Positions 1-10,693 of a stretch of 10,693 nucleotides of DNA are shown piece by piece. This DNA comes from a virus (taxonomy: Duplodnaviria; Heunggongvirae; Uroviricota; Caudoviricetes), in the IMG/VR virus record IMGVR_UViG_2690316325_000003; one strand, written 5' to 3'. How positions within the stretch are numbered: position 1 is the stretch's first letter; every line of letters begins with the position of its first letter. A program made the position numbers and the translations under genes. The notes below the pieces were generated by a model. The model did no database searches. It was not told the DNA's origin and saw nothing but the letters and a program-made list of their open reading frames with translations.

Positions 1-98
<98 letters not shown>

Positions 99-99
99 C

Positions 100-399
100 T
101 CAGAACTCCATCTGGATTTGTTCAGAACGCTCGGTCTTGCACACCGGGCGTTTTTTCTTTGTGATTTCATCAAGCGCATACTTAAAAGCCCTGCTAATCG
201 GGCTGATGTCTGATGCCATTCCGAAAGCACACAAGACCGAAGCAATAAATCTCCAGTCCGTTCTGCTTATCTTCGATTCATGACAGCCAATCATCTTTGC
301 CAGACCGCGCTGTGTAAGCGTTGACAGGTTAATGAGTAAATATGTTTCTGCGCGATCAACGTCGCGCTGTGATAGTTTGCTGTAACTTGTTTGTTCCAT
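100..399 (-). CDS. cII: CII-like transcriptional activator (lambda cII family), 99 aa
   Basis: C-terminus ...KKRPVCKTERSEQIQMEF closely matches lambda CII C-terminus (...KKRPAATERSEQIQMEF) as I recall it; N-terminal two thirds diverged. Lies downstream of cro on the same strand, as in lambda. Stop codon is one base from the left repeat. Confidence 0.85.
   Translation of the reverse strand: MEQTSYSKLSQRDVDRAETYLLINLSTLTQRGLAKMIGCHESKISRTDWRFIASVLCAFGMASDISPISRAFKYALDEITKKKRPVCKTERSEQIQMEF
128..156 (+). terminator. oop-like intrinsic terminator hairpin, antisense to the cII 3' end
   Basis: Stem cgctcgg / ccgggcg (7 bp, one G-U) with 9-nt loop followed by TTTTTTCTTT on the plus strand; in lambda the oop antisense RNA ends at the equivalent position inside cII. 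Confidence 0.45.
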
Positions 400-484
400 T
401 TCTTAAGATTTCCAGTAGTGAATAGTTAGTTGAAAGGTATGCGTGGAAACGCATATGGCCTTAGTTGGTCAGATATCTTGGGAC

Positions 485-530
485 TCGCTTTGTCAGCGAC
501 GTAGGACGAATGTCCATTGTGAAAATAGCG
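485..530 (-). promoter_or_regulatory. nutR-like site: boxA-like CGCTATTTT (522..530) and P22-type boxB hairpin tcgc-tgacaaa-gcga (485..499)
   Basis: Read on the minus strand just downstream of the cro stop; boxB loop GACAAA is the P22 type and matches the nutL boxB at 2677..2691. A separate 7-bp palindrome with GGAA loop lies at 438..455. Confidence 0.5.
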
Positions 531-537
531 GTGTTAC

Positions 538-747
<210 letters not shown>

Positions 748-762
748 TTAGTACATGCAACC

Positions 763-832
763 ATTATCACCGCTAGAGGTAAAATAGTCAACACGCACGG
801 TGTTAGATATTTATCCCTTGCGGTGATAGATT
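763..832. promoter_or_regulatory. OR region: OR1 (765..781), OR2 (789..805), OR3 (812..828); PR on minus strand (-10 at 763..768, -35 at 786..791); PRM on plus strand (-35 tagata 804..809, -10 tagatt 827..832)
   Basis: Three 17-bp operators tatcaccgctagaggta / caacacgcacggtgtta / tatcccttgcggtgata match lambda OR1-3 with one change in OR1. The cI ATG at 839 sits at the expected leaderless PRM start. Confidence 0.9.
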
Positions 833-835
833 TAA

Positions 836-1552
<717 letters not shown>

Positions 1553-1559
1553 CACGTAA

Positions 1560-1997
1560 ATGATTAAAGAACGTATTTCTTATATCATTCCGATTGCGAT
1601 GGATGAAGGCAACCCAGTAACTCCAGTTCTTATCTATGAAATGGATAAAGACTCCCATGAAGTGGATCTATCATTTGGCGCTTTTTTTATCGGCCTTAAG
1701 GCTACAAAAAAATATTCCATAGGCATTGAGGTTTTCAATGCTCAAGAAATACCGATACCAATTGACACAAAACTGTACTCCAACCATAAGTTTTTTACGG
1801 TAGCAGAAGCCAACGATGGAGAAACCATCGTATCAACTTCTATGAGAATTAACTTCCCAAGGGTGAAAATTATCAAGCCTGGGATATTCGAAGTTAGAGC
1901 ATCTCTGGTTAATCCTGATAAAGGCGAAGTAATTGATGTAAAAAGTTCGTTTTTTGACGTGAAGATAACAGGATCAGTTCGCGATGAGTTTAGATAA
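1560..1997 (+). CDS. Hypothetical protein, 145 aa, soluble; first gene of the rex-slot cassette
   Basis: Intact ORF starting 7 nt after the cI stop, in the position lambda rexA occupies but with no resemblance to RexA as I recall it; no recognisable motifs; looks AT-richer than cI by eye (not computed). Confidence 0.7.
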   Translation: MIKERISYIIPIAMDEGNPVTPVLIYEMDKDSHEVDLSFGAFFIGLKATKKYSIGIEVFNAQEIPIPIDTKLYSNHKFFTVAEANDGETIVSTSMRINFPRVKIIKPGIFEVRASLVNPDKGEVIDVKSSFFDVKITGSVRDEFR

Positions 1998-2355
1998 CAA
2001 GGTTGCTCAGCTTCGTCCAAATCAAAACATATCTCGCCCAATTGGACACTATTCCACTGATGATGCATACTCACGGCATGGTGGAGGAAACGGCGGAGGT
2101 AACATGCTTGAGGCTAGAGTTGCAAAGCTAGAGTCTGATGTTGAATACATCAAGCGCGATCTCGCTGAAGTAAAGTCAGATATAAAATCTGTAGATTCTC
2201 GTCTGTCAGGTATTGAGACAAGCATTAGCTCAGCAAAAATCACCATCAAGGCATCTGCGGTCGTTGTCAGTTTCGTGTTCGCATTTTGCGCCTACATTTT
2301 TGGAAGTTATGTTTCCAAAATCCTTGATGCCTTAAACGGACTCGTTCTTAAGTAA
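1984..2355 (+). CDS. Hypothetical membrane-anchored coiled-coil protein, 123 aa; second gene of the rex-slot cassette
   Basis: ATG overlaps the end of the upstream ORF by 14 nt (translational coupling). Gly-rich N-terminal stretch (HGGGNGGGN), heptad-like segment LEARVAKLESDVEYIKRDLAEVKSDIKSVDSRL, and one hydrophobic C-terminal helix ASAVVVSFVFAFCAYIFGSYV. Architecture resembles XhlA-type small membrane proteins; not RexB-like. Confidence 0.7.
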   Translation: MSLDNKVAQLRPNQNISRPIGHYSTDDAYSRHGGGNGGGNMLEARVAKLESDVEYIKRDLAEVKSDIKSVDSRLSGIETSISSAKITIKASAVVVSFVFAFCAYIFGSYVSKILDALNGLVLK

Positions 2356-2362
2356 CACACAA

Positions 2363-2389
2363 CCCGGCCTCAGCGCCGGGTTTTCTTTG
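2363..2389 (+). terminator. Rho-independent terminator after the cassette (lambda timm-like position)
   Basis: Stem cccggc / gccggg (6 bp), 6-nt loop, followed by TTTTCTTTG. Confidence 0.6.
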
Positions 2390-2545
2390 CCTCACGATCC
2401 CCTTCACCCAATAACACATAACCAATTGTATTTATTTGAAAATTAATAGATACAACTCACTAAACATCGCAATTCAGATCTCTCGATCACCTCCCAAGCC
2501 ACACCCCCCTGCAAAAAAATAAATCTATATAAAAAACATACAGAT

Positions 2546-2608
2546 AACCATCTGCGGTGATAAATTATCTCTGGCGGTGTTGACATAAATACCACTGGCG
2601 GTGATACT
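2546..2608 (+). promoter_or_regulatory. OL3 (2546..2562), OL2 (2566..2582), OL1 (2590..2606) with PL (-35 ttgaca 2580..2585, -10 gatact 2603..2608) firing rightward
   Basis: Sequence aaccatctgcggtgataaattatctctggcggtgttgacataaataccactggcggtgatact matches the lambda OL/PL region as I recall it; similarity to lambda fades about 20 nt downstream. Confidence 0.9.
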
Positions 2609-2676
2609 AAACACATCAGCAGGACGCACTACTCACCAGGGCGGTGAATATACAACGATTCGAATATGAATCTACG

Positions 2677-2691
2677 GCGCTGACAAAGCGC
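2677..2691 (+). promoter_or_regulatory. nutL boxB hairpin, P22 type (gcgc-tgacaaa-gcgc)
   Basis: Exact gcgctgacaaagcgc in the PL leader, identical to the P22 boxB RNA as I recall it; no convincing boxA seen just upstream. Confidence 0.55.
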
Positions 2692-2856
2692 AATAACCAA
2701 AGTGAACTTTGGGGTGTGGTGAAGGGTTCATGGACGGGAATATGTCGCACGTAAAGCGGCGAGGCCTGCGGGACTATTGCCGAATTGAAGTAGGCCGAAA
2801 CAGGTCGAAATGGGTCTCCCACCTACCACACCACCAAAGTTCATCAGGAGGTCTAT

Positions 2857-3240
2857 ATGACACGCAGAACTCAGTTCAAAGGCAATTCACGTTCTCGTCG
2901 TCGTGAGCGTTTAAAGGCAAAGGCATTAGCTAACGGCGTACTGGCCCGCGAAGAAGCAATAAGTTCAGAAGTATTACACCGCCCTACTCTAAGCAGAGCG
3001 CAGATTCAGGCTAAAGGTACTCACGAAACGCCTGAGCGCATAGAAGACGCTAAGCCAATTAAGTTCATGGCACAGGACGTGATCTGGCAACAGAAAGAAT
3101 ACAGACGCAATCTGGAGCGAGCGGCCATTGTGTACGCGAATGAGTTTGGACATAAGCAACCAGAAACTGGTGTATGTCTTCCAAACGTAGCTCTTTACGC
3201 GGCAGGCTACAGGAAATCAAAACAACTGACAGCGAGATGA
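2857..3240 (+). CDS. N: N-like transcription antiterminator (P22 gp24-like), 127 aa
   Basis: First gene after PL/nutL with strong RBS (aggagg); N-terminal arginine-rich motif RRTQFKGNSRSRRRERLKAKA typical of N-family boxB-binding peptides. Confidence 0.8.
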   Translation: MTRRTQFKGNSRSRRRERLKAKALANGVLAREEAISSEVLHRPTLSRAQIQAKGTHETPERIEDAKPIKFMAQDVIWQQKEYRRNLERAAIVYANEFGHKQPETGVCLPNVALYAAGYRKSKQLTAR

Positions 3241-3277
3241 CGATACCCCGCCAACTAGGGCACTAACCGACAGGAGC

Positions 3278-3421
3278 ATGACCATGAATAACGATAACGA
3301 AGCACTTAAAGAAATGATTGCGAAACTTCTTGAAGATGCCCGCCGCCTTCAGGTAGTGGAGCCAAACGCAGGGACACAATCACGCATTGATGAAGCGATG
3401 AAATTGCTCAAAGCAGAATAA
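3278..3421 (+). CDS. Small hypothetical protein, 47 aa
   Basis: Below the ORF-track size cutoff; preceded by caggag RBS; fills the gap between N and the next gene. Start could be 3284. Confidence 0.35.
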   Translation: MTMNNDNEALKEMIAKLLEDARRLQVVEPNAGTQSRIDEAMKLLKAE

Positions 3422-3455
3422 GCTCAGGCAGCAAACCACTTATTTGAGGTGAGAT

Positions 3456-3707
3456 ATGGAATTTCATGAAAGTGCGATTTATGATTTTCGCGCTAACGCA
3501 AATTCAGTAAAACCACTGCCAATTGCAGTTCTTTTTAAAACAATGGGGGCGTGGGCTGTTTTATGCTTCGCCTCTGATGACACTGACGCAAGAATGGCAA
3601 TAAGCCAAGAGATGGAGATGGACCCGACAAACGATGAATTCATAATTTATGGCGCTCCATCTAATTACTTACTTGATACCTGCAACATTTACAACAAGGC
3701 TGCCTGA
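3456..3707 (+). CDS. Hypothetical protein, 83 aa
   Basis: RBS gaggtgag upstream of the ATG; same strand as the PL operon; no recognisable family. Confidence 0.55.
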   Translation: MEFHESAIYDFRANANSVKPLPIAVLFKTMGAWAVLCFASDDTDARMAISQEMEMDPTNDEFIIYGAPSNYLLDTCNIYNKAA

Positions 3708-3765
3708 TGGTGGCCTTTATTTTTGTCCGTAAATAATTTCATGCTTATTACAATCAAGGTGATAT

Positions 3766-4215
3766 ATGGAAGAACAAGCAAACAAGATTCTCGTAGAACT
3801 ACTGCAAAAAGCCAGTAATGGAATAGACGCGGCTGTTTCATTTAGCCAGGCACAGATTCCTGATGTTGTTCATCAGTTGCTGCTATGGAATATGGTTGAC
3901 AGTCTGATTAAAACATTAATAGCCATTCTAACAATCCCACTGGTTTTCTGGTTTATGAAGAAGCAGTGCCAAAGAGTTGAGACAGGTAAAATCGGTGATG
4001 AAGGATACTCATGTGAGAGGGGAAATCCCAAATACAGGCCGACAATGGTTTGGGATAGCAAAGGAGATATTAACCTTCTTATCGTGCCATTGGTTGGAGT
4101 TTTGACTCTGTGGGGGATTTTTATTATTGGTGTAGTAACCAATATGACTTGGTTAAAAATTTGGCTGGCCCCAAAACTTTACCTTATCGAATATGCAGCA
4201 TCATTGGTTAAGTAA
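3766..4215 (+). CDS. Hypothetical inner-membrane protein, 149 aa (2-3 predicted TM segments)
   Basis: RBS aaggtga; hydrophobic stretches LIKTLIAILTIPLVFWF and LLIVPLVGVLTLWGIFIIGVV; lies where lambdoid phages often carry sieB-type exclusion genes (positional inference only). Confidence 0.65.
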   Translation: MEEQANKILVELLQKASNGIDAAVSFSQAQIPDVVHQLLLWNMVDSLIKTLIAILTIPLVFWFMKKQCQRVETGKIGDEGYSCERGNPKYRPTMVWDSKGDINLLIVPLVGVLTLWGIFIIGVVTNMTWLKIWLAPKLYLIEYAASLVK

Positions 4216-4272
4216 TTTCAGGCCGTATAATCGTCCTTCATTTTTGGCATAAACAACAGAATAAATACTGCA

Positions 4273-4304
4273 CTGTGTATTCATTCCAACGAGTGAATAC
4301 ACGG
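4273..4304. repeat. Intergenic near-perfect inverted repeat (hairpin, 12-14 bp stem, loop caac)
   Basis: gtgtattcattc-caac-gagtgaatacac with one G-T pair, extendable by two flanking pairs; no T-run follows, so not a classical intrinsic terminator. Confidence 0.5.
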
Positions 4305-4403
4305 AGCAATGTCGCTCGTAACTAAACAGGAGCCGACTTGTTCTGATTATTGGAAATCTTCTTTGCCCTCCAATGTGAGGGCGATTTTTTTGACGGAGGA
4401 ATT

Positions 4404-4820
4404 ATGGAAATTACAGATATTCTGGTTAATCCAGATAATTACGACCGATTCAATATCTCTACTCAATCAGTTGATTTGGGTTGCGCAACTGTCAGCGCAT
4501 GGCTACTTAATGGTAAACAGTTGGATAAATGCCTTGATGCACATATGACGGTTAACAGCTTCCTTGCAGAAAAAACACACTGGCAAGATGCTGGAGGGAA
4601 ATATGCTGGATGGCTTGAAAGCATGGGATTTGAATATCAATCTGATGAAGGTTGGTGGAGCCTTATAGCTGTAACGCCTGAGACAATAGAATGCTTCGTT
4701 AAATACTCAAACGACGATGACTATAAACACCAGGTGGATTCTGCGATAGAAAGATACAAAAGAAAATCGTTCAACCACGAAATATCATCAGTTCTTGATT
4801 TCATAGAAATCTTCAAATAA
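4404..4820 (+). CDS. Hypothetical acidic protein, 138 aa
   Basis: The ORF track starts at 4350, but the in-frame ATG at 4404 has a strong RBS (gacggagga) and is the more likely start; Asp/Glu-rich, no recognisable motif. Confidence 0.6.
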   Translation: MEITDILVNPDNYDRFNISTQSVDLGCATVSAWLLNGKQLDKCLDAHMTVNSFLAEKTHWQDAGGKYAGWLESMGFEYQSDEGWWSLIAVTPETIECFVKYSNDDDYKHQVDSAIERYKRKSFNHEISSVLDFIEIFK

Positions 4821-4903
4821 GCCGCCAAGCGCGGCTTTACCGCATACCAATAATGCTTCACGAGAGGCATTTTCGTTATGCAATCAAATATAAGGAGTTA
4901 CCC

Positions 4904-5038
4904 ATGATGCACTTTCAGCTCGCGGGTAGCGGCGTCATGTCCGCTTTCTACCCGCACGAATCTGAATTATCACGCCGAGTTAAACAATTAATCAGAGCAG
5001 CAAAGAAACAACTGGAGGCGTTATGCGCAATGAAATAG
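4904..5038 (+). CDS. cIII: CIII-like small protein, 45 aa (possible FtsH inhibitor)
   Basis: Likely start at ATG 4904 (RBS taaggag), not 4853; segment LAGSGVMSAFYPHESELSRRVKQL loosely resembles the lambda CIII core (IAGWPVAGCPSESLLERITRKL) as I recall it; sits immediately upstream of a kil-like ORF as in lambda. Confidence 0.5.
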   Translation: MMHFQLAGSGVMSAFYPHESELSRRVKQLIRAAKKQLEALCAMK

Positions 5039-5175
5039 CCATCAATCACCAGATGCTTCGTGCTGCACAAAACAAAGCAGTAATAGCCAGATTTATTGGT
5101 GATTCCAAAATGTGGCTTGAAGCAAATAAAGCGATGAAATCAGCTATCAACCTTCCGTGGTATCGCAGGAAATGA
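5023..5175 (+). CDS. kil: Kil-like small protein, 50 aa
   Basis: Below ORF-track cutoff; RBS ggagg; overlaps the end of the cIII-like ORF; motif ARFIGDSKMWLEANKAMK resembles lambda Kil as I recall it (unverified) and the position matches. Confidence 0.4.
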   Translation: MRNEIAINHQMLRAAQNKAVIARFIGDSKMWLEANKAMKSAINLPWYRRK

Positions 5176-5250
5176 GTTTTACAGATAACTGGTCAGACGA
5201 AGAATTCATTCGTCAGATGAAAGAATTAATCGGTAACGAAGGAGATATTC

Positions 5251-5421
5251 ATGTCACTTGCAACCACAGTGAAGGAGAGCAAGTTACAGAGACGCATGTA
5301 CACGCAGAAAGCTCTCTGGTATCGCCATAATGGTGACCGCGAAGGAATGCGGGTATGCCTTAACTTGTCCCGAGTCGAAGTATTAAATCAGCGTTATTTC
5401 CTTGTGCCGTGTCCATTCTGA
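5251..5421 (+). CDS. Small hypothetical protein, 56 aa
   Basis: Strong RBS aaggag 7 nt upstream; stop lies 8 nt before the next gene. An alternative overlapping ORF 5172..5330 (52 aa, other frame, ATGA overlap with the kil-like stop) cannot be excluded. Confidence 0.4.
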   Translation: MSLATTVKESKLQRRMYTQKALWYRHNGDREGMRVCLNLSRVEVLNQRYFLVPCPF

Positions 5422-5429
5422 GGTGAATT

Positions 5430-6128
5430 ATGGATTTGAATAAATTCGATGAGCCATTCAGCCCCGAAGATATCGAATGGCGAATACAGCAAAGCGGTAA
5501 AACACGCGATGGCAAGGTGTGGGCTATGGTGCTGGCTTATGTCACGAACCGGGCAATCATGAAACGCCTGGACGATGTTTGCGGCAAAGCAGGATGGCGC
5601 AATGAATACCGCGATATTCCCAACAACGGCGGAGTTGAATGCGGCATATCAATCAAGATTGATTCCGAATGGGTAACCAAATGGGATGCTGCTGAAAACA
5701 CGCAGGTAGAAGCCGTCAAAGGTGGTCGTTCCGGTGCAATGAAGCGTGCTGCCGTTCAATGGGGAATCGGTCGGTATCTGTATAACCTTGAGGAAGGTTT
5801 CGCACAAACATCTCTCGATAAAAAGCAGGGATGGCACAGGGCAAAACTGAAAGATGGAACAGGATTTTACTGGTCCCCTCCATCGCTGCCGGGATGGGCA
5901 ATCCCAGCATCAGATAACAAACCATCACCAGAAAATACCAACCAGAAATCTCCATCGGTTGACTGCGAACAAATCCTGAAAGACTTCAGCGATTATGCGT
6001 CAACAGAAACTGACAAGAAAAAACTCATCGAGCGTTATCAGCGTGACTGGCAATTAATGGCTGGCAACGAGGAAGCGCAGGCTAAATGCGTTCAGGTAAT
6101 GAACATCAGAGTTAACGAACTAAAATAG
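5430..6128 (+). CDS. Single-strand annealing protein, Rad52/Sak-like recombinase, 232 aa
   Basis: Central region GGVECGISIKIDSEWVTKWDAAENTQVEAVKGGRSGAMKRAAVQWGIGRYLYNLE is typical of Rad52-family phage annealing proteins; C-terminal ~55 aa (...TETDKKKLIERYQRDWQL...CVQVMNIRVNELK) may resemble the P22 Erf C-terminal domain (recollection, unverified). Confidence 0.8.
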   Translation: MDLNKFDEPFSPEDIEWRIQQSGKTRDGKVWAMVLAYVTNRAIMKRLDDVCGKAGWRNEYRDIPNNGGVECGISIKIDSEWVTKWDAAENTQVEAVKGGRSGAMKRAAVQWGIGRYLYNLEEGFAQTSLDKKQGWHRAKLKDGTGFYWSPPSLPGWAIPASDNKPSPENTNQKSPSVDCEQILKDFSDYASTETDKKKLIERYQRDWQLMAGNEEAQAKCVQVMNIRVNELK

Positions 6129-6137
6129 GCGGCATAA

Positions 6138-6599
6138 ATGGCAAGCAGAGGCGTAAATAAGGTGATTATCCTTGGTCGGGTAGGACAAGACCCGGAAGTT
6201 CGATACTCACCATCAGGTACAGCGTTCGCTAACCTGACAATAGCCACGTCAGAACAATGGCGAGATAAAAATACTGGCGAGCAAAAGGAATTGACTGAAT
6301 GGCATCGTGTTGCTGTATCCGGGAAACTGGCTGAGGTCGTGGGGCAGTATGTGAAAAAAGGTGATCAGATTTATTTCGAGGGAATGCTGAGAACCAGAAA
6401 GTGGAAAGACCAGTCAGGGCAAGACCGTTACACAACCGAGGTTCATGTCGGAATTAATGGCGTGATGCAAATGCTTGGCGGCATTGGCGACAGCAAACAA
6501 CAAGCAGCCAGCAGGCAATCACAGAAGCCACAGCAGCAATCATCACCAGCACAACACAACGAACCTCCTATGAACTTCGACGATGAGATCCCATTTTAA
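6138..6599 (+). CDS. ssb: Single-stranded DNA-binding protein, 153 aa
   Basis: OB-fold N-domain closely matching E. coli SSB ([10 protein letters not shown]..., ...TEWHRV..., ...[12 protein letters not shown]...), Gln/Pro-rich linker, acidic tail [11 protein letters not shown]. Confidence 0.92.
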
Positions 6600-6614
6600 T
6601 CATTGGGAGAAAAT

Positions 6615-7082
6615 ATGATCACTTGCAAAAAATGTGGAGAGAATAAACCACCTAATGGTTTTTATCCTAGAAATAAGGTGTGCAAGGAATGCACTAAAAA
6701 ACGAGTAACTGAATATCAAAAAGGAATAGGAAAGCTAATACATAATAATGCTTGCAAAAAATATAACAAAAGCGAAAAGGGCAAGGTTGCATTAAGCAAA
6801 GCAAGAGAGAACTATCTGGAATCTCATCGCCAAAGACAGCAAGCAAGATGGTCAGTCAAACGGGCAATTAAATCTGGTAAGTTATGTAGACCAACAACGT
6901 GTCAGAAATGCAACAGCAAATGCCACCCAGACGCTCACCACTGCGATTACAGTAAACCTCTTGAAGTGATGTGGCTATGCAAAGCATGTCATGTTGAATG
7001 GCACAAGCACAACAAGCCAATATATCCAGACGAGGAACCAGTAACTCTCCCCTTCCCTCGTCACGCTATTAACGCAATTTAA
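6615..7082 (+). CDS. Cys-rich HNH-type endonuclease-like protein, 155 aa
   Basis: Likely start ATG 6615 (RBS gggaga) rather than TTG 6603; N-terminal CxxC...CxxC zinc ribbon (CKKCGEN...CKEC) and C-terminal HNH-like motif HPDAHHCDYSKPLEVMWLCKACHVEWHKHN. Confidence 0.7.
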   Translation: MITCKKCGENKPPNGFYPRNKVCKECTKKRVTEYQKGIGKLIHNNACKKYNKSEKGKVALSKARENYLESHRQRQQARWSVKRAIKSGKLCRPTTCQKCNSKCHPDAHHCDYSKPLEVMWLCKACHVEWHKHNKPIYPDEEPVTLPFPRHAINAI

Positions 7083-7095
7083 TCAGGAGAAAAAC

Positions 7096-7392
7096 ATGCC
7101 AGCGCCTTTGTATGGTGCGGATGACGCGCGCCGCTGTTCCGGCAATTCCGTATCGGAGGTGCTGGATAAATTCAGAAAAAACTACGATCGAATAATGTCT
7201 CTACCGCAGGAAACGAAAGAGGAAAAGGAATTTCGCCACTGTATATGGCTTGCAGAGAAAGAAGAACGCGAGCGAATTTACCAGACATCAATCCGACCAT
7301 TCCGCAAAGCCACATATACCCACTTCCCTGAATATATCGACCCGCGCCTGCGTAATTACCGCTCACGCTATGGCGCTATCAGTAATGACTGA
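7096..7392 (+). CDS. Hypothetical protein, 98 aa
   Basis: Strong RBS (aggaga) 6 nt upstream of the ATG; no recognisable motif. Confidence 0.6.
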
Positions 7393-7402
7393 GGAATTTA
7401 CC

Positions 7403-7570
7403 ATGAGAGGACTTGCATACAATCCCGGCATTCTTCCGGCAGAAATGATTATTCGCCAGCGCGTAAAGCCAATGCCATCGAGAGAGGAATTGCTTAAGAG
7501 AAATTCTTTTCCGTCAGTGAATCAAAACAAATATCTGAATGCGATGTGGCGCAAAGGAGGCAACCAGTGA
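7403..7570 (+). CDS. Small hypothetical protein, 55 aa
   Basis: RBS gagga upstream of ATG 7403; in frame with track ORF 7250..7570, whose upstream part overlaps the previous gene; stop overlaps the next gene's GTG (GTGA). Confidence 0.4.
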
Positions 7571-8373
7571 GCAAGATTGACTATCAGGTACTGCGTGCCA
7601 AGGCAGAAAAAGCAACGTGTGGTGTATGGTCGCTCGAATATGGAGAGGGCCGATTTGATGGTGATGATGCACTAATTCATCGCGAGGCTGCTGGATATAT
7701 TCCCATTTGCAGAATTGAAGGAGCGCATCCAGAAAGCGGTTTCGATGAAGATTTCCAAATGGAACAGCAGGCCAATGCTGAATTCATCGCCGCAGCCAAT
7801 CCGGCTACCGTCTTGGCGCTGCTTGGCGAGCTGGAAGCAGCAGAGAACAACCTTATTGATAGTGAATGCCATGTTGCTGAACTGGAAGAAGCGCTACGCG
7901 ATAAGCAGGCGTTACTTGAAGCATCAGAAAAGCGCATAGCAGAACTGGAAGCCGAACTCGTAAGCCAAACTTACAAGTTGCCAGAATTAATCGAGGGCAT
8001 GGAAGTTTCCATTGATGTAAGCACTTGTGATGCTGATTTAGGTAATCGCTATTTCGGCACCGTCACCGAGGCGTTAGAACTTGATACTGCCAAGAATGGT
8101 TACATCCTCCTGGTTCAGGACGCAGAGCCAAACTTCGATGTAAATGGCAACTCTCCGGTAACTCCGGATGGTTGGATAAGCTGTAGTGATCGAATGCCGG
8201 ATGATGGTCAGCACGTAATTATTTTATGTGATGGCGCATTCGTTCTTTATGCGCAATATCGAGACAGTGAGTTTTTTGATGTTGTCCGCAATGGTGAGGA
8301 GTTCTTCGAAACGCAGAGCCGCAATGTAACCCACTGGATGCCGCTACCGGAACCGCCGCAGGAGGTAAAGTGA
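7567..8373 (+). CDS. Ea22-like / DUF551-like two-domain protein, ~268 aa
   Basis: Likely GTG start at 7567 (RBS aaggagg) rather than 7546; N-terminus [20 protein letters not shown] and central coiled coil resemble prophage ead/Ea22-family proteins; C-terminal ...[19 protein letters not shown]...[10 protein letters not shown] resembles DUF551 (recollection). Confidence 0.65.
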
Positions 8374-8657
8374 TGGACTCCTTCGCGAAATATACGATTA
8401 TTGACTGGATAGCATTCCTTCAGGTTTTGCTCATCTGGTTTTATATGGCTTACAGGAGTGGACAGTGGATTGTCAGTGTAGCCTGTAGCAGGGGATGGCG
8501 TTGGTGGAACCGAAAGAATAAAAAAGCACTGGCCTTGGATTCGTTTTACGAAGCATTCAATCTTAACAGCCTTCAGCCTGGTTCTGTCATTGTAGTCACC
8601 ACTCAAAGCGGCATGACGATACAAATTCACAAGCCAAAGGAGGAAGGTCGTGGCTAA
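8373..8657 (+). CDS. Hypothetical small protein with N-terminal hydrophobic segment, ~94 aa
   Basis: RBS aggagg before ATG 8373 (GTG 8370 also possible); start overlaps the upstream stop; segment IIDWIAFLQVLLIWFYMAY is hydrophobic. Confidence 0.5.
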   Translation: MDSFAKYTIIDWIAFLQVLLIWFYMAYRSGQWIVSVACSRGWRWWNRKNKKALALDSFYEAFNLNSLQPGSVIVVTTQSGMTIQIHKPKEEGRG

Positions 8658-8931
8658 CCTGCAACTTGCCGTCAAAGGTGAATACTTCAACGCCATGATT
8701 CGCGGGGAGAAAACGGAAGAGTATCGCCTGTGCAATGACTACTGGAATAAACGCCTCGTTAATCGTAAGTATGACCGCCTGATTATCACAAAGGGATATC
8801 CGAAGCGCGACGATTCCAGCCGCAGAATTGACGTCCCGTATGACGGATATGAAATCAAGACAATCACACATCCGCACTTCGGCGATAAACCGGTAACGGT
8901 ATTCGCGATAAAGGTGAATATCAATTGCTAA
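8650..8931 (+). CDS. Hypothetical protein, 93 aa
   Basis: GTG start with good RBS (aaggagg, 6-nt spacer); overlaps the upstream stop by 8 nt. Confidence 0.55.
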   Translation: MANLQLAVKGEYFNAMIRGEKTEEYRLCNDYWNKRLVNRKYDRLIITKGYPKRDDSSRRIDVPYDGYEIKTITHPHFGDKPVTVFAIKVNINC

Positions 8932-8955
8932 ATTAGTAGCATAGCATAAAGATGC

Positions 8956-8979
8956 TTGCATTAATGAAGTGTGTATAAT
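8956..8979 (+). promoter_or_regulatory. Candidate sigma70 promoter (ttgcat ... TATAAT) in an AT-rich intergenic region
   Basis: Perfect TATAAT at 8974..8979 with ttgcat upstream, but the spacer is only ~12 nt, so the -35 assignment is doubtful; first sizeable non-coding gap after a long run of tightly packed genes. Confidence 0.3.
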
Positions 8980-9044
8980 AACGCCTCATCAATAGTAAAC
9001 TACTGAAATAGCAAAAAAAATGCATATTAAAGAGGATTCAAAAA

Positions 9045-9236
9045 TTGAAAATGTTCATGCAAATAGACAGACGCATAGATATTAATGGCAATTCATACTT
9101 AGTTAGATGCGAAGAGAGGCCTAACGGTGAGTGGCGTGTATATGATATTGACCGTAAGATCAATATCAGCACCATGAACAAAGACACTGCCTTTGATGAA
9201 TGGAAAGCTGAAGCTAAAAAACAACATAATTCGTAA
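9045..9236 (+). CDS. Small hypothetical protein, 63 aa (moron-like unit)
   Basis: Track start is TTG 9045; ATG 9051 is an alternative; preceded by the AT-rich candidate promoter and followed by a terminator. Confidence 0.5.
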   Translation: MKMFMQIDRRIDINGNSYLVRCEERPNGEWRVYDIDRKINISTMNKDTAFDEWKAEAKKQHNS

Positions 9237-9279
9237 AATTACAAAAACCCTAACCAATTGATGGATTTCTTTTATCTGA

Positions 9280-9303
9280 ACTCGCTACGGCGAGTTTTGT
9301 TTT
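9280..9303 (+). terminator. Rho-independent terminator
   Basis: Stem actcgc / gcgagt with loop tacg, followed by TTTTGTTTT. Confidence 0.55.
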
Positions 9304-9316
9304 ATGGAGATGATAA

Positions 9317-9484
9317 ATGAACTTCCGAGTTACAGGTGAATGGAATGGAGAGCCATTCAACAGGGTTATCGAAGCAGAGGACATCAACGACTGCTATGAC
9401 CACTGGATGCTATGGGCGCAGATAGCACATGCAGACGTAACCAATATTCGAATTGAAGAACTGAAAGAACACCAAGCCGCCTGA
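9317..9484 (+). CDS. Small hypothetical protein, 55 aa
   Basis: Below ORF-track cutoff; weak RBS (ggaga); bracketed by two terminator-like hairpins, so it could instead be non-coding. Confidence 0.35.
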   Translation: MNFRVTGEWNGEPFNRVIEAEDINDCYDHWMLWAQIAHADVTNIRIEELKEHQAA

Positions 9485-9497
9485 TGGCGGTTTTTTA
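9476..9497 (+). terminator. Terminator-like hairpin with T-run
   Basis: gccgcc-tgat-ggcgg followed by TTTTTTATT; lies just upstream of the likely start of the next gene. Confidence 0.45.
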
Positions 9498-9510
9498 TTG
9501 GAGACAAGAA

Positions 9511-9855
9511 ATGTCAGATTTGGCTATGAAGGTTTTGAAATGGCAATCGACTGGCGATGTCGGCATCAGTAGCGCAACTCTTGCCTCAATCGCATGTGGC
9601 CTGAAAAAGAATATCTATGGTCATCACTTCGGCGCTCCACATGACGCAGCCGATTTCCGACGATGCGTTGCACTTGTTGAGCAGATTCCAGAAATCAGAG
9701 ATTCATTCGACAAGGTTGCAAAGCGCGTTCCGGCGTTCAAAGGAATCCTCAACGAATGGGATTCCCTCGTTGCTCTGTTGAAGTCTGAAATGAAGATACA
9801 CGGAAACAAAGCACCAGAGACTTACAGAAGAATCAGCGAGCTACGCAAGGACTAA
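9511..9855 (+). CDS. Hypothetical protein, 114 aa
   Basis: Likely start ATG 9511 (RBS ggaga) rather than 9484, which lies inside the hairpin; no recognisable motif. Confidence 0.6.
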   Translation: MSDLAMKVLKWQSTGDVGISSATLASIACGLKKNIYGHHFGAPHDAADFRRCVALVEQIPEIRDSFDKVAKRVPAFKGILNEWDSLVALLKSEMKIHGNKAPETYRRISELRKD

Positions 9856-10166
9856 CCCGCCTCACACTCGATGAGGCCTGTACATTTCTCAAGATATCCA
9901 GACCTACCGCAATCATGTCAATCCAATAAATGGAGATTCCAGGTGGAAGAAGAAATCTTCACTCGTGAAGAAGCTGCGTCGTATCTGAAGGTAGACAAAG
10001 GCACTATCACACAGTGGATACGAAGTGGACGACTTCAGGCCGCAAAGATAAATCCAGATAAACCTAAAAGTCCATATCGCATTTGCAAGTCAGACTGCAT
10101 TGCGGCGCTTAAGTCTGTGAGACACAATAGCGCGGTGAATGCGGTTGATGTGCAGGAGGTTAAAGC

Positions 10167-10680
<514 letters not shown>

Positions 10681-10693
10681 AGCTATAACCCCG

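Follow-up and report, generated by a model that had tools for sequence, protein, structure and literature searches.

Four early-left accessory gene families without assigned function between N and cIII of a lambdoid Escherichia coli prophage

The DNA analyzed here, a stretch of 10,693 nucleotides (nt) from IMG/VR virus record IMGVR_UViG_2690316325_000003 (Caudoviricetes) and referred to as the window, comes from a lambdoid prophage, of which it spans the immunity and early-left region. Between N and the cIII and kil genes it carries four open reading frames (ORFs) of 47, 83, 149, and 138 amino acids (aa), here called orf47, orf83, orf149, and orf138, which occupy the block (3278-4820) where a first-pass annotation of the sequence had placed them and which all lie on the + strand, i.e., in the direction of transcription from the lambda promoter PL. 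They are genuine genes, each with a family membership, organized in cassettes with a traceable distribution among phages, and without homology to proteins of known function. We infer the timing of their expression, their dependence on PL and N, and a role in counter-defence or host takeover, and we lean, with modest confidence, toward the explanation that they are dispensable early accessory genes, transcribed from PL under N antitermination, exchanged as cassettes in the ral/ea10 slot, and acting on host components or defences in lytic growth. As a whole, this is an ordinary lambdoid accessory region with one moderately interesting member, the 138-aa protein.

The earlier statement that no family could be assigned to these ORFs holds for Pfam, NCBIfam, and PADLOC, in which none of the four has a match, and the 83-, 149-, and 138-aa ORFs are also without a sequence match in PDB. 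Each ORF matches over its full length a PHROG family of unknown function (E 5e-29 to 2e-86), namely phrog_32391, phrog_2471, phrog_3054, and phrog_8967 in gene order, so that all four families are already catalogued under that label. These full-length matches, the 516 homologues that keep the length of orf149, and the ratio of non-synonymous to synonymous substitution (dN/dS) and predicted fold of orf138 indicate that the four are genes and not chance ORFs. Confident homology to housekeeping phage functions was encountered in neither the sequence nor the profile searches. Direct and profile comparisons were negative with lambda SieB, Ea10, Ral, and orf28, with P22 SieA, SieB, gene 17, orf78, orf87, Ral, and holin, with Sf6 gp33 and gp36, with T4 Imm, and with the phenotype-bearing genes of a published accessory-gene screen (Silas et al., see below), the sole positive being Sf6 gp34. 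A literature search found no paper citing the four proteins by accession or PHROG number.

The gene orf138 (4404-4820, + strand; phrog_8967, E 1.8e-86, 138/138 positions) lies in the slot of lambda ea10, just upstream of cIII; a TTG-extended form of 156 aa is also present in the ORF list. Its product is soluble and mostly helical, and the strong acidity attributed to it in the first-pass annotation turns out to be moderate (isoelectric point, pI, 4.59; 23 D+E vs. 12 K+R; net charge -11). The dN/dS of the gene is 0.12-0.14. Using an alignment of 58 sequences, all of which match phrog_8967, AlphaFold predicts a mostly helical domain (predicted local distance difference test, pLDDT, 96.8; predicted template modeling score, pTM, 0.88). 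No known structural relative of this predicted fold was found, and a PDB profile search with the same alignment returned nothing. The family is rare, with 10 clusters in a set of 5.8 billion proteins. When 1.84 billion representatives were searched exhaustively with a profile, 63 distant relatives of ~125-150 aa were retrieved, none of which has a Pfam domain and which share the core DWGGxYAxWL...GI...TDNGWWS..AV.P.NI..F; their cluster look-up gave metagenomic singletons only, and a repeat search with the broad alignment yielded almost nothing further. Regarding possible activities, neither the fold nor the charge pattern of the DNA mimics Ocr and ArdA was found in orf138, and a Cys/His metal site (C27, C43, H47, and H125) was considered and rejected, its residues being specific to one clade. 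Since the family-invariant residues (Y67, L71, W84, W85, G75, and G83) are aromatic or glycine and not acidic, and since the Cys/His positions are unconserved in the wider family, there is no support for reading the protein as a DNA mimic or as carrying a metal site.

Outside lambdoid prophages, orf138 is found in 115 records of an annotated phage collection, at 64-66% identity and always in genomes of ~134-143 kb. The carriers examined (BASEL isolates) are virulent rV5-like Vequintavirinae, in which the gene lies within a run of small early ORFs. The rV5-like copies, e.g., bas57_0086 and bas54_0089, are full-length homologues (64-66% identity, all 138 aa) but differ from orf138 in their setting, which is not a PL operon but the long early run of small ORFs of a 136-kb virulent myovirus. 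A HIDEN-SEQ map, in which 25 of 27 sites in the gene bas54_0089 (417 nt) were hit, classifies it as "Non-essential" (doi 10.1101/2025.11.20.689424), and its synteny and length point to orthology with orf138.

The gene orf149 (3766-4215, + strand; phrog_3054, E 3.5e-63) encodes a membrane protein with two transmembrane (TM) segments, belonging to the family of gp34 of Shigella phage Sf6 (NP_958210; 51% identity, E 3e-41). Where two to three hydrophobic helices had been described, two are clear TM segments (~43-63 and 104-127), whereas the third is a highly conserved but only moderately hydrophobic C-terminal helix; TMHMM gives a count of 2 for a gp34-family member (Silas et al., Supplementary File 3). 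The first 39 residues of orf149 and Sf6 gp34 are identical and the last 20 nearly so, both proteins having the C-terminal motif WLKIW.APKL.LIEYAASLVK, whereas the TM1-loop-TM2 region has diverged, with 9 fewer residues in Sf6. Over 31 homologues, the mean column identity reaches 0.91 in the N-terminal 42 and C-terminal 22 residues, with 0.65 in TM1, 0.67 in the loop, and 0.45 in TM2, and the motifs FSQAQIPDV.HQLL.W (N-terminal) and WLKIW.APK.YLIEYA (C-terminal) are invariant. Both motifs survive at 27-41% identity in phages of Vibrio and Pseudomonas and in virulent E. coli phages (Stephanstirmvirinae, genus Justusliebigvirus), the loop varying in length. Relatives of orf149 are known from temperate as well as virulent phages, the hosts being Vibrio, Pseudomonas, Klebsiella, and E. 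coli. The position of Sf6 gp34 is also like that of orf149, with a ral-type terminator on the upstream side of the gene and the bsq4/tL2a spacer on its downstream side; as Sf6 gp34 is itself uncharacterised, membership in its family yields no function for orf149. The AlphaFold model of orf149 is of low confidence (pLDDT 66), a search of BFVD (predicted viral protein structures) with this model returned nothing, and the positive-inside rule leaves the topology undecided.

In the virulent E. coli, Vibrio, and Pseudomonas phages mentioned above, the gp34-family gene is located among early genes and outside the lysis cassettes, and in phage HF4s it begins 8 nt after N. In ~46-kb phage-plasmids it is found between the lysis genes and terminase, on the downstream side of the lysis cassette with two other genes in between, and considering this different location it is a mobile cassette without a fixed position. 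A holin function finds no support: orf149 has no holin match in Pfam or PHROG, the P22 holin scores 0.8-2.1 bits, and the neighbors are early genes in five of the six contexts examined. In the virulent phage PaulScherrer (Justusliebigvirus; 2983-4560), the gp34-family gene stands directly upstream of a gene annotated as "FtsH-like protease," and in the window it is near cIII, which encodes an FtsH inhibitor; a link between the family and FtsH was considered on these grounds, but the parallel is seen in one lineage only and may be a coincidence. The leading region of conjugative plasmids was also considered as a home of the genes, and was rejected, the "plasmid" matches (a 137.6-kb record, and non-mobilizable ~46-kb records, one of which was examined) looking like phage genomes or phage-plasmids.

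The product of orf83 (3456-3707, + strand; phrog_2471, E 3.6e-58) is a soluble protein of 83 aa encoded in the lambda ral slot and, with a pI of 4.24, it is more acidic than the 138-aa product. Its relatives are widespread, occurring in 56 phage records at 72-95% identity with the length kept at 83 aa (the 72% copy is from a Salmonella phage), and are found in Stx-converting, HK633/mEp234-type, and P22-like phages as well as in Gally. The dN/dS values obtained (0.33-0.75) correspond to a divergence of 1-3%, too small for a meaningful value. No match to the Pfam model of Ral (PF11058) was detected, and phmmer gave negative bit scores against lambda and P22 Ral, the overlap between orf83 and Ral being confined to the last four residues (...NKAA) plus the terminator. 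Because these unrelated genes share ...NKAA and the same terminator (3693-3725), the joint at which the cassettes recombine lies within the coding sequence, at its 3' end. The ral-region gene orf184 of Silas et al., which is unrelated, also ends in ...KAA. In HK633 (2031-2706), the orf83 homologue is annotated with 129 aa, of which residues 1-83 match, and the gp34-like remnant is a shortened, 363-nt match split over two annotated ORFs, an arrangement suggestive of a deletion or fusion affecting the orf83/gp34-like cassette pair.

The fourth gene, orf47 (3284-3421, + strand; phrog_32391, E 4.8e-29, residues 6-47), was delimited mechanically as an ORF from 3278. Its start is most likely the ATG at 3284, giving a product of 45 aa, since the Shine-Dalgarno spacing (AGGAG 7 nt upstream), a 45-aa gene call in an identical contig, and the PHROG profile agree. 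The product is small, acidic, and hydrophilic, without a TM-like segment. The gene forms one module with N and travels with the present N allele. Relatives occur in 14 phage records and are all distant; they include 44-aa ORFs of Pectobacterium phages and, in the early region of Shigella phage 75/02 Stx upstream of kil, a 118-aa ORF of which the N-terminus is related.

The block is built of cassettes that meet at conserved, terminator-containing "boundary sequences." The part matched by other phages in megablast extends from 3426, right after the orf47 stop codon, to ~4389-4406, right before orf138. A terminator-like hairpin followed by a T-run (3696-3717, + strand), detected by a terminator scan, overlaps the orf83 stop codon at a cassette boundary and, as aligned to the 3' end of lambda ral and to the leaders of Sf6 and Gally, is the sequence found 3' of lambda and Sf6 ral. 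Between orf149 and orf138 lies a conserved non-coding spacer of 188 nt (4216-4403, + strand), which corresponds to the lambda ral-ea10 spacer and the "bsq4" of Sf6 and whose ~160-nt core (from ~4240) is near-identical to both; the Sf6 record annotates the bsq4 boundary sequence together with the tL2A terminator. The spacer contains a perfect 12-bp hairpin (4275-4302) and a tL2a-type terminator (4363-4384; terminator scan), and its RNA fold has a z-score of -4.95 vs. shuffled controls. An Rfam search over 2400-5200 returned only isrK, with 18 bits against a threshold of 50, which was rejected as chance. The spacer is almost invariant among lambda, Sf6, and the present prophage despite their different flanking genes, and this extreme conservation suggests a role beyond termination, for instance as a recombination joint or an RNA element.

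From the boundary and terminator matches, orf83 can be placed in the ral slot and orf138 in the ea10 slot, with orf149 between them as a further cassette like that of Sf6; lambda Ral and Ea10 share slots and terminator or boundary sequences with orf83 and orf138, but no homology. A survey was made of 24 lambdoid IMG/VR loci carrying orf138. The spacer is kept upstream of orf138 in 23 of them, and the preceding slot is occupied by Ral (12 loci), orf83 (three), or a gp34-family gene (three), Nmad5 being found there in other contigs. Considering that orf138 co-occurs with Ral in half of the loci and in one locus stands in tandem with ea10 of lambda, it is an additional cassette and no allele of ral or ea10. 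No complete E. coli genome has the exact gene combination over at least 80% of its length. The view that early-left accessory genes are a reservoir of exclusion and anti-defence functions is supported: the N-to-cIII slot is known to harbor anti-restriction and exclusion genes, with ral, sieB, ea10, and P22 gene 17 found there, and Nmad5 or Ral in other prophages. With regard to the features of morons, which are autonomous insertions with a promoter and a terminator of their own, terminator-like elements bound the cassettes, and a scan for the sigma-70 consensus found no promoter-like site upstream of orf149 or orf138, i.e., neither in the 58-nt leader of orf149 (3708-3765) nor in the spacer (4216-4403).

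Under the explanation favored here, the block, a row of four cassettes that are exchanged independently of one another, occupies the stretch of the PL operon next to N, where lambda has ral and ea10. The genes would be silent in the lysogen and transcribed from PL only upon infection or loss of repressor, N-modified RNA polymerase reading through the cassette terminators at 3696-3717 and 4363-4384. Their products would be dispensable early lytic factors, neither housekeeping proteins nor exclusion proteins expressed by the prophage. In the orf149 protein, the variable TM hairpin may serve as an inner-membrane anchor, with the two conserved juxtamembrane helices as the likely working surface, which could act on a conserved envelope-associated target or, in lytic growth, stop a second infection at its membrane step. 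The orf138 protein, a predicted soluble single domain of undescribed fold, would most likely bind and inhibit a host protein and would be useful to temperate and virulent coliphages alike, and the 83-aa and 45-aa proteins would be small acidic products of the same general class. In favor of this explanation, ral, P22 gene 17, Nmad5, and lar-type genes occupy the same slot. It is also backed by the breaks of phage matches exactly at gene boundaries, by the common orientation with PL together with the lack of a promoter-like site in the scan, by the start of the gp34-family gene 8 nt after N in HF4s, by the non-essential score of bas54_0089, and by the presence of orf138 and gp34-family genes among early genes of virulent phages. 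A bolder proposal, which we put forward tentatively and consider doubtful, is that the orf138 protein is the founder of a structurally new family of phage inhibitors (core DWGGxYAxWL...GWWS...F), by which temperate lambdoid and virulent rV5-like phages would, at an early stage of infection, disable either a host immune system or some conserved host factor, and that the Sf6 gp34-family protein is a second, widespread early inner-membrane effector of phages of gamma-proteobacteria.

Silas et al. (bioRxiv 10.1101/2023.04.06.535777; Nat Commun 2025, PMC12373910) define phage "accessory regions," the ral region among them, and tested a library of 200 such genes in wild E. coli (ECOR strains) infected with T2-T7, P1, or lambda. 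Their accessory genes, e.g., orf184, gnarl1-3, and abc1, are like the four ORFs small, variable, horizontally exchanged, early, and present in lytic and temperate phages, and the gop-beta-cII abortive system is set off by orf184, a gene of the ral region (Silas et al., bioRxiv 10.1101/2023.04.06.535777); none of those with a phenotype is related to the four ORFs. Two other genes listed in Supplementary File 3 are relatives: UDP0060 (AFM76313.1, from mEp234) is 95% identical to orf83, and UDP0047 (AEW47744.1, 121 aa, 2 TM) is a member of the gp34 family. An exact-string search of the library table gave no match to motifs of the orf138 family or of orf47.

Several points weigh against the favored explanation. 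None of the four families has a demonstrated function, and neither UDP0060 nor UDP0047 is among the reported counter-defence, exclusion, and cell-death genes (Silas et al.). The position between the lysis cassette and terminase in phage-plasmids implies that early expression is not universal in the gp34 family. Furthermore, PADLOC covers defence systems and not anti-defence proteins, which places an anti-defence library outside the scope of the searches, and weak or activator-dependent promoters may escape a scan restricted to the sigma-70 consensus.

The likening of the 149-aa product to sieB in the first-pass annotation raises the alternative that orf149 acts in superinfection exclusion, blocking DNA entry or aborting infection like SieB, SieA, or T4 Imm. 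Lambda and P22 SieB and P22 SieA are, like orf149, small, accessory, non-essential inner-membrane proteins encoded beside N in lambdoid phages; the two TM segments of orf149 and its position adjoining N fit this description, its variable core and conserved termini fit an arms-race interface, early expression in virulent phages is compatible with exclusion of the T4 Imm/Sp type during lytic growth, and the gp34-family gene has a typical moron position in phage-plasmids. We nevertheless regard exclusion as unlikely, and the sieB analogy itself does not stand. The sieB genes of lambda and P22 run antisense to PL, are transcribed in the lysogen from a promoter of their own, and contain an internal esc start, whereas orf149 is oriented with PL and has no promoter detectable by the scan, and is therefore probably not expressed in the lysogen. 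Neither is there similarity in sequence: the Pfam models of SieB (PF14163; at E<0.1) and Imm (PF14373) are silent for orf149, BLASTP to lambda SieB gives an E of 0.2 over 19 residues, and lambda and P22 SieB score at most 1.2 bits against the gp34-family profile; the comparisons with SieA (2.7-4.1 bits) and T4 Imm (4.1 bits) also stay below 5 bits. The presence of the family in strictly virulent phages and at other genome positions argues against exclusion of the SieB type in particular. The screen logs of Silas et al. name UDP79, UDP183, Cor, and Imm, "among others," as showing exclusion; UDP0047 is not one of those named.

Anti-restriction of a known class, by which the 138-aa and/or 83-aa proteins would be DNA mimics like Ocr and ArdA or modifiers of type I systems like Ral, appears quite improbable. 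It would suit the position of orf83 exactly in the ral slot and of orf138 one cassette downstream, the frequent presence of Ral or Nmad5 in this slot, and the acidity of both products (pI 4.2 and 4.6). Similarity to Ral is lacking in sequence, however, and the occurrence of orf138 alongside Ral in 12 of the 24 loci means that it is no substitute for Ral. The net negative charge (-11 over 138 aa) appears to be considerably smaller than that of Ocr, and the invariant residues are not acidic ones. In addition, the orf83 orthologue has no reported anti-restriction phenotype in a screen in which Ral, Ocr, and ArdA scored (Silas et al.). That some of the ORFs, especially orf47, are decaying or functionless passengers kept by recombination at the boundary sequences is in our view very unlikely. 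The tiny size of orf47, its few and distant relatives, and its uncertain start codon are in keeping with this idea, as are the uninformative dN/dS of orf83, the fused or truncated pair in HK633, and the lack of a reported phenotype in the published screen. Yet length and motifs are retained in orf149 and orf138 over a wide range of divergence and in phages of different lifestyles, orf138 is under clear purifying selection and has a confidently predicted fold, and orf83 remains intact at 83 aa in 56 phage records, including the 72%-identical Salmonella phage copy.

The genetic setting of the block is as follows. Upstream of it are found cII (100-399, - strand), a lambda-type cro (538-738, - strand), a lambda-type cI (839-1552, + strand), and N (2857-3240; Pfam N_peptide, E 9.8e-16); downstream follow, in order, cIII (Pfam, E 4.6e-30), kil (Kil, E 1.7e-20), and genes for a Rad52-like annealing protein and SSB, with an integrase at the end of the window. 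The lambda operators and PL lie at ~2550-2608, the operator sequence having been read directly, and the lambda PL promoter was located by a promoter scan at 2580-2608 (+ strand; TTGACA-17-GATACT, 10/12 matches). A boxB-like hairpin, GCGCTGACAAAGCGC, lies at 2677-2691 (+ strand) as a candidate for nutL and looks like a boxB of the P22 type. Expression of the block should depend on this promoter and hairpin. The prophage is a hybrid at 2550-3240, with lambda cI, cro, operators, and PL combined with a non-lambda N of 127 aa.

Positions 1-10596 of the window are 100% identical to contig CYBU01000029.1 of E. coli assembly GCA_001286005.1. The last 97 bases (10597-10693) are a perfect inverted copy of window 1-98, and the identical public contig instead runs on into a full integrase of 386 aa. 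The inverted copy and the intact public integrase indicate that the window ends on the right in a fold-back or assembly artefact, by which the "integrase" ORF of 150 aa (10167-10619) is artificially truncated.

In the position of rexA and rexB (1560-2355), two ORFs are found directly 3' of the lambda-type cI and on the same strand. One encodes 145 aa (phrog_5893), and the other encodes 123 aa (phrog_6136), with weak coiled-coil Pfam, XhlA, and CorA-like matches and a hydrophobic, TM-like C-terminal stretch. This pair is better placed than the N-cIII block for exclusion or abortive infection expressed in the lysogen. A 41-nt direct repeat with 73% identity links the 145-aa ORF (1881-1921) and the start of orf138 (4398-4438), both copies encoding ...LVNPD...; the resemblance is probably due to chance.

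As it stands, the block exemplifies in textbook manner the mosaic slot beside N in which lambdoid phages swap accessory cassettes. If its genes do act on defences or core envelope functions, they would be new entries for the catalogue of phage counter-defence. The best candidate is the 138-aa family, with its confidently predicted but unmatched fold common to temperate and virulent coliphages, and the second is the gp34 family, which extends from Vibrio to Pseudomonas phages. In practical terms, the analysis points away from the sieB analogy and toward these two tractable, conserved candidates.

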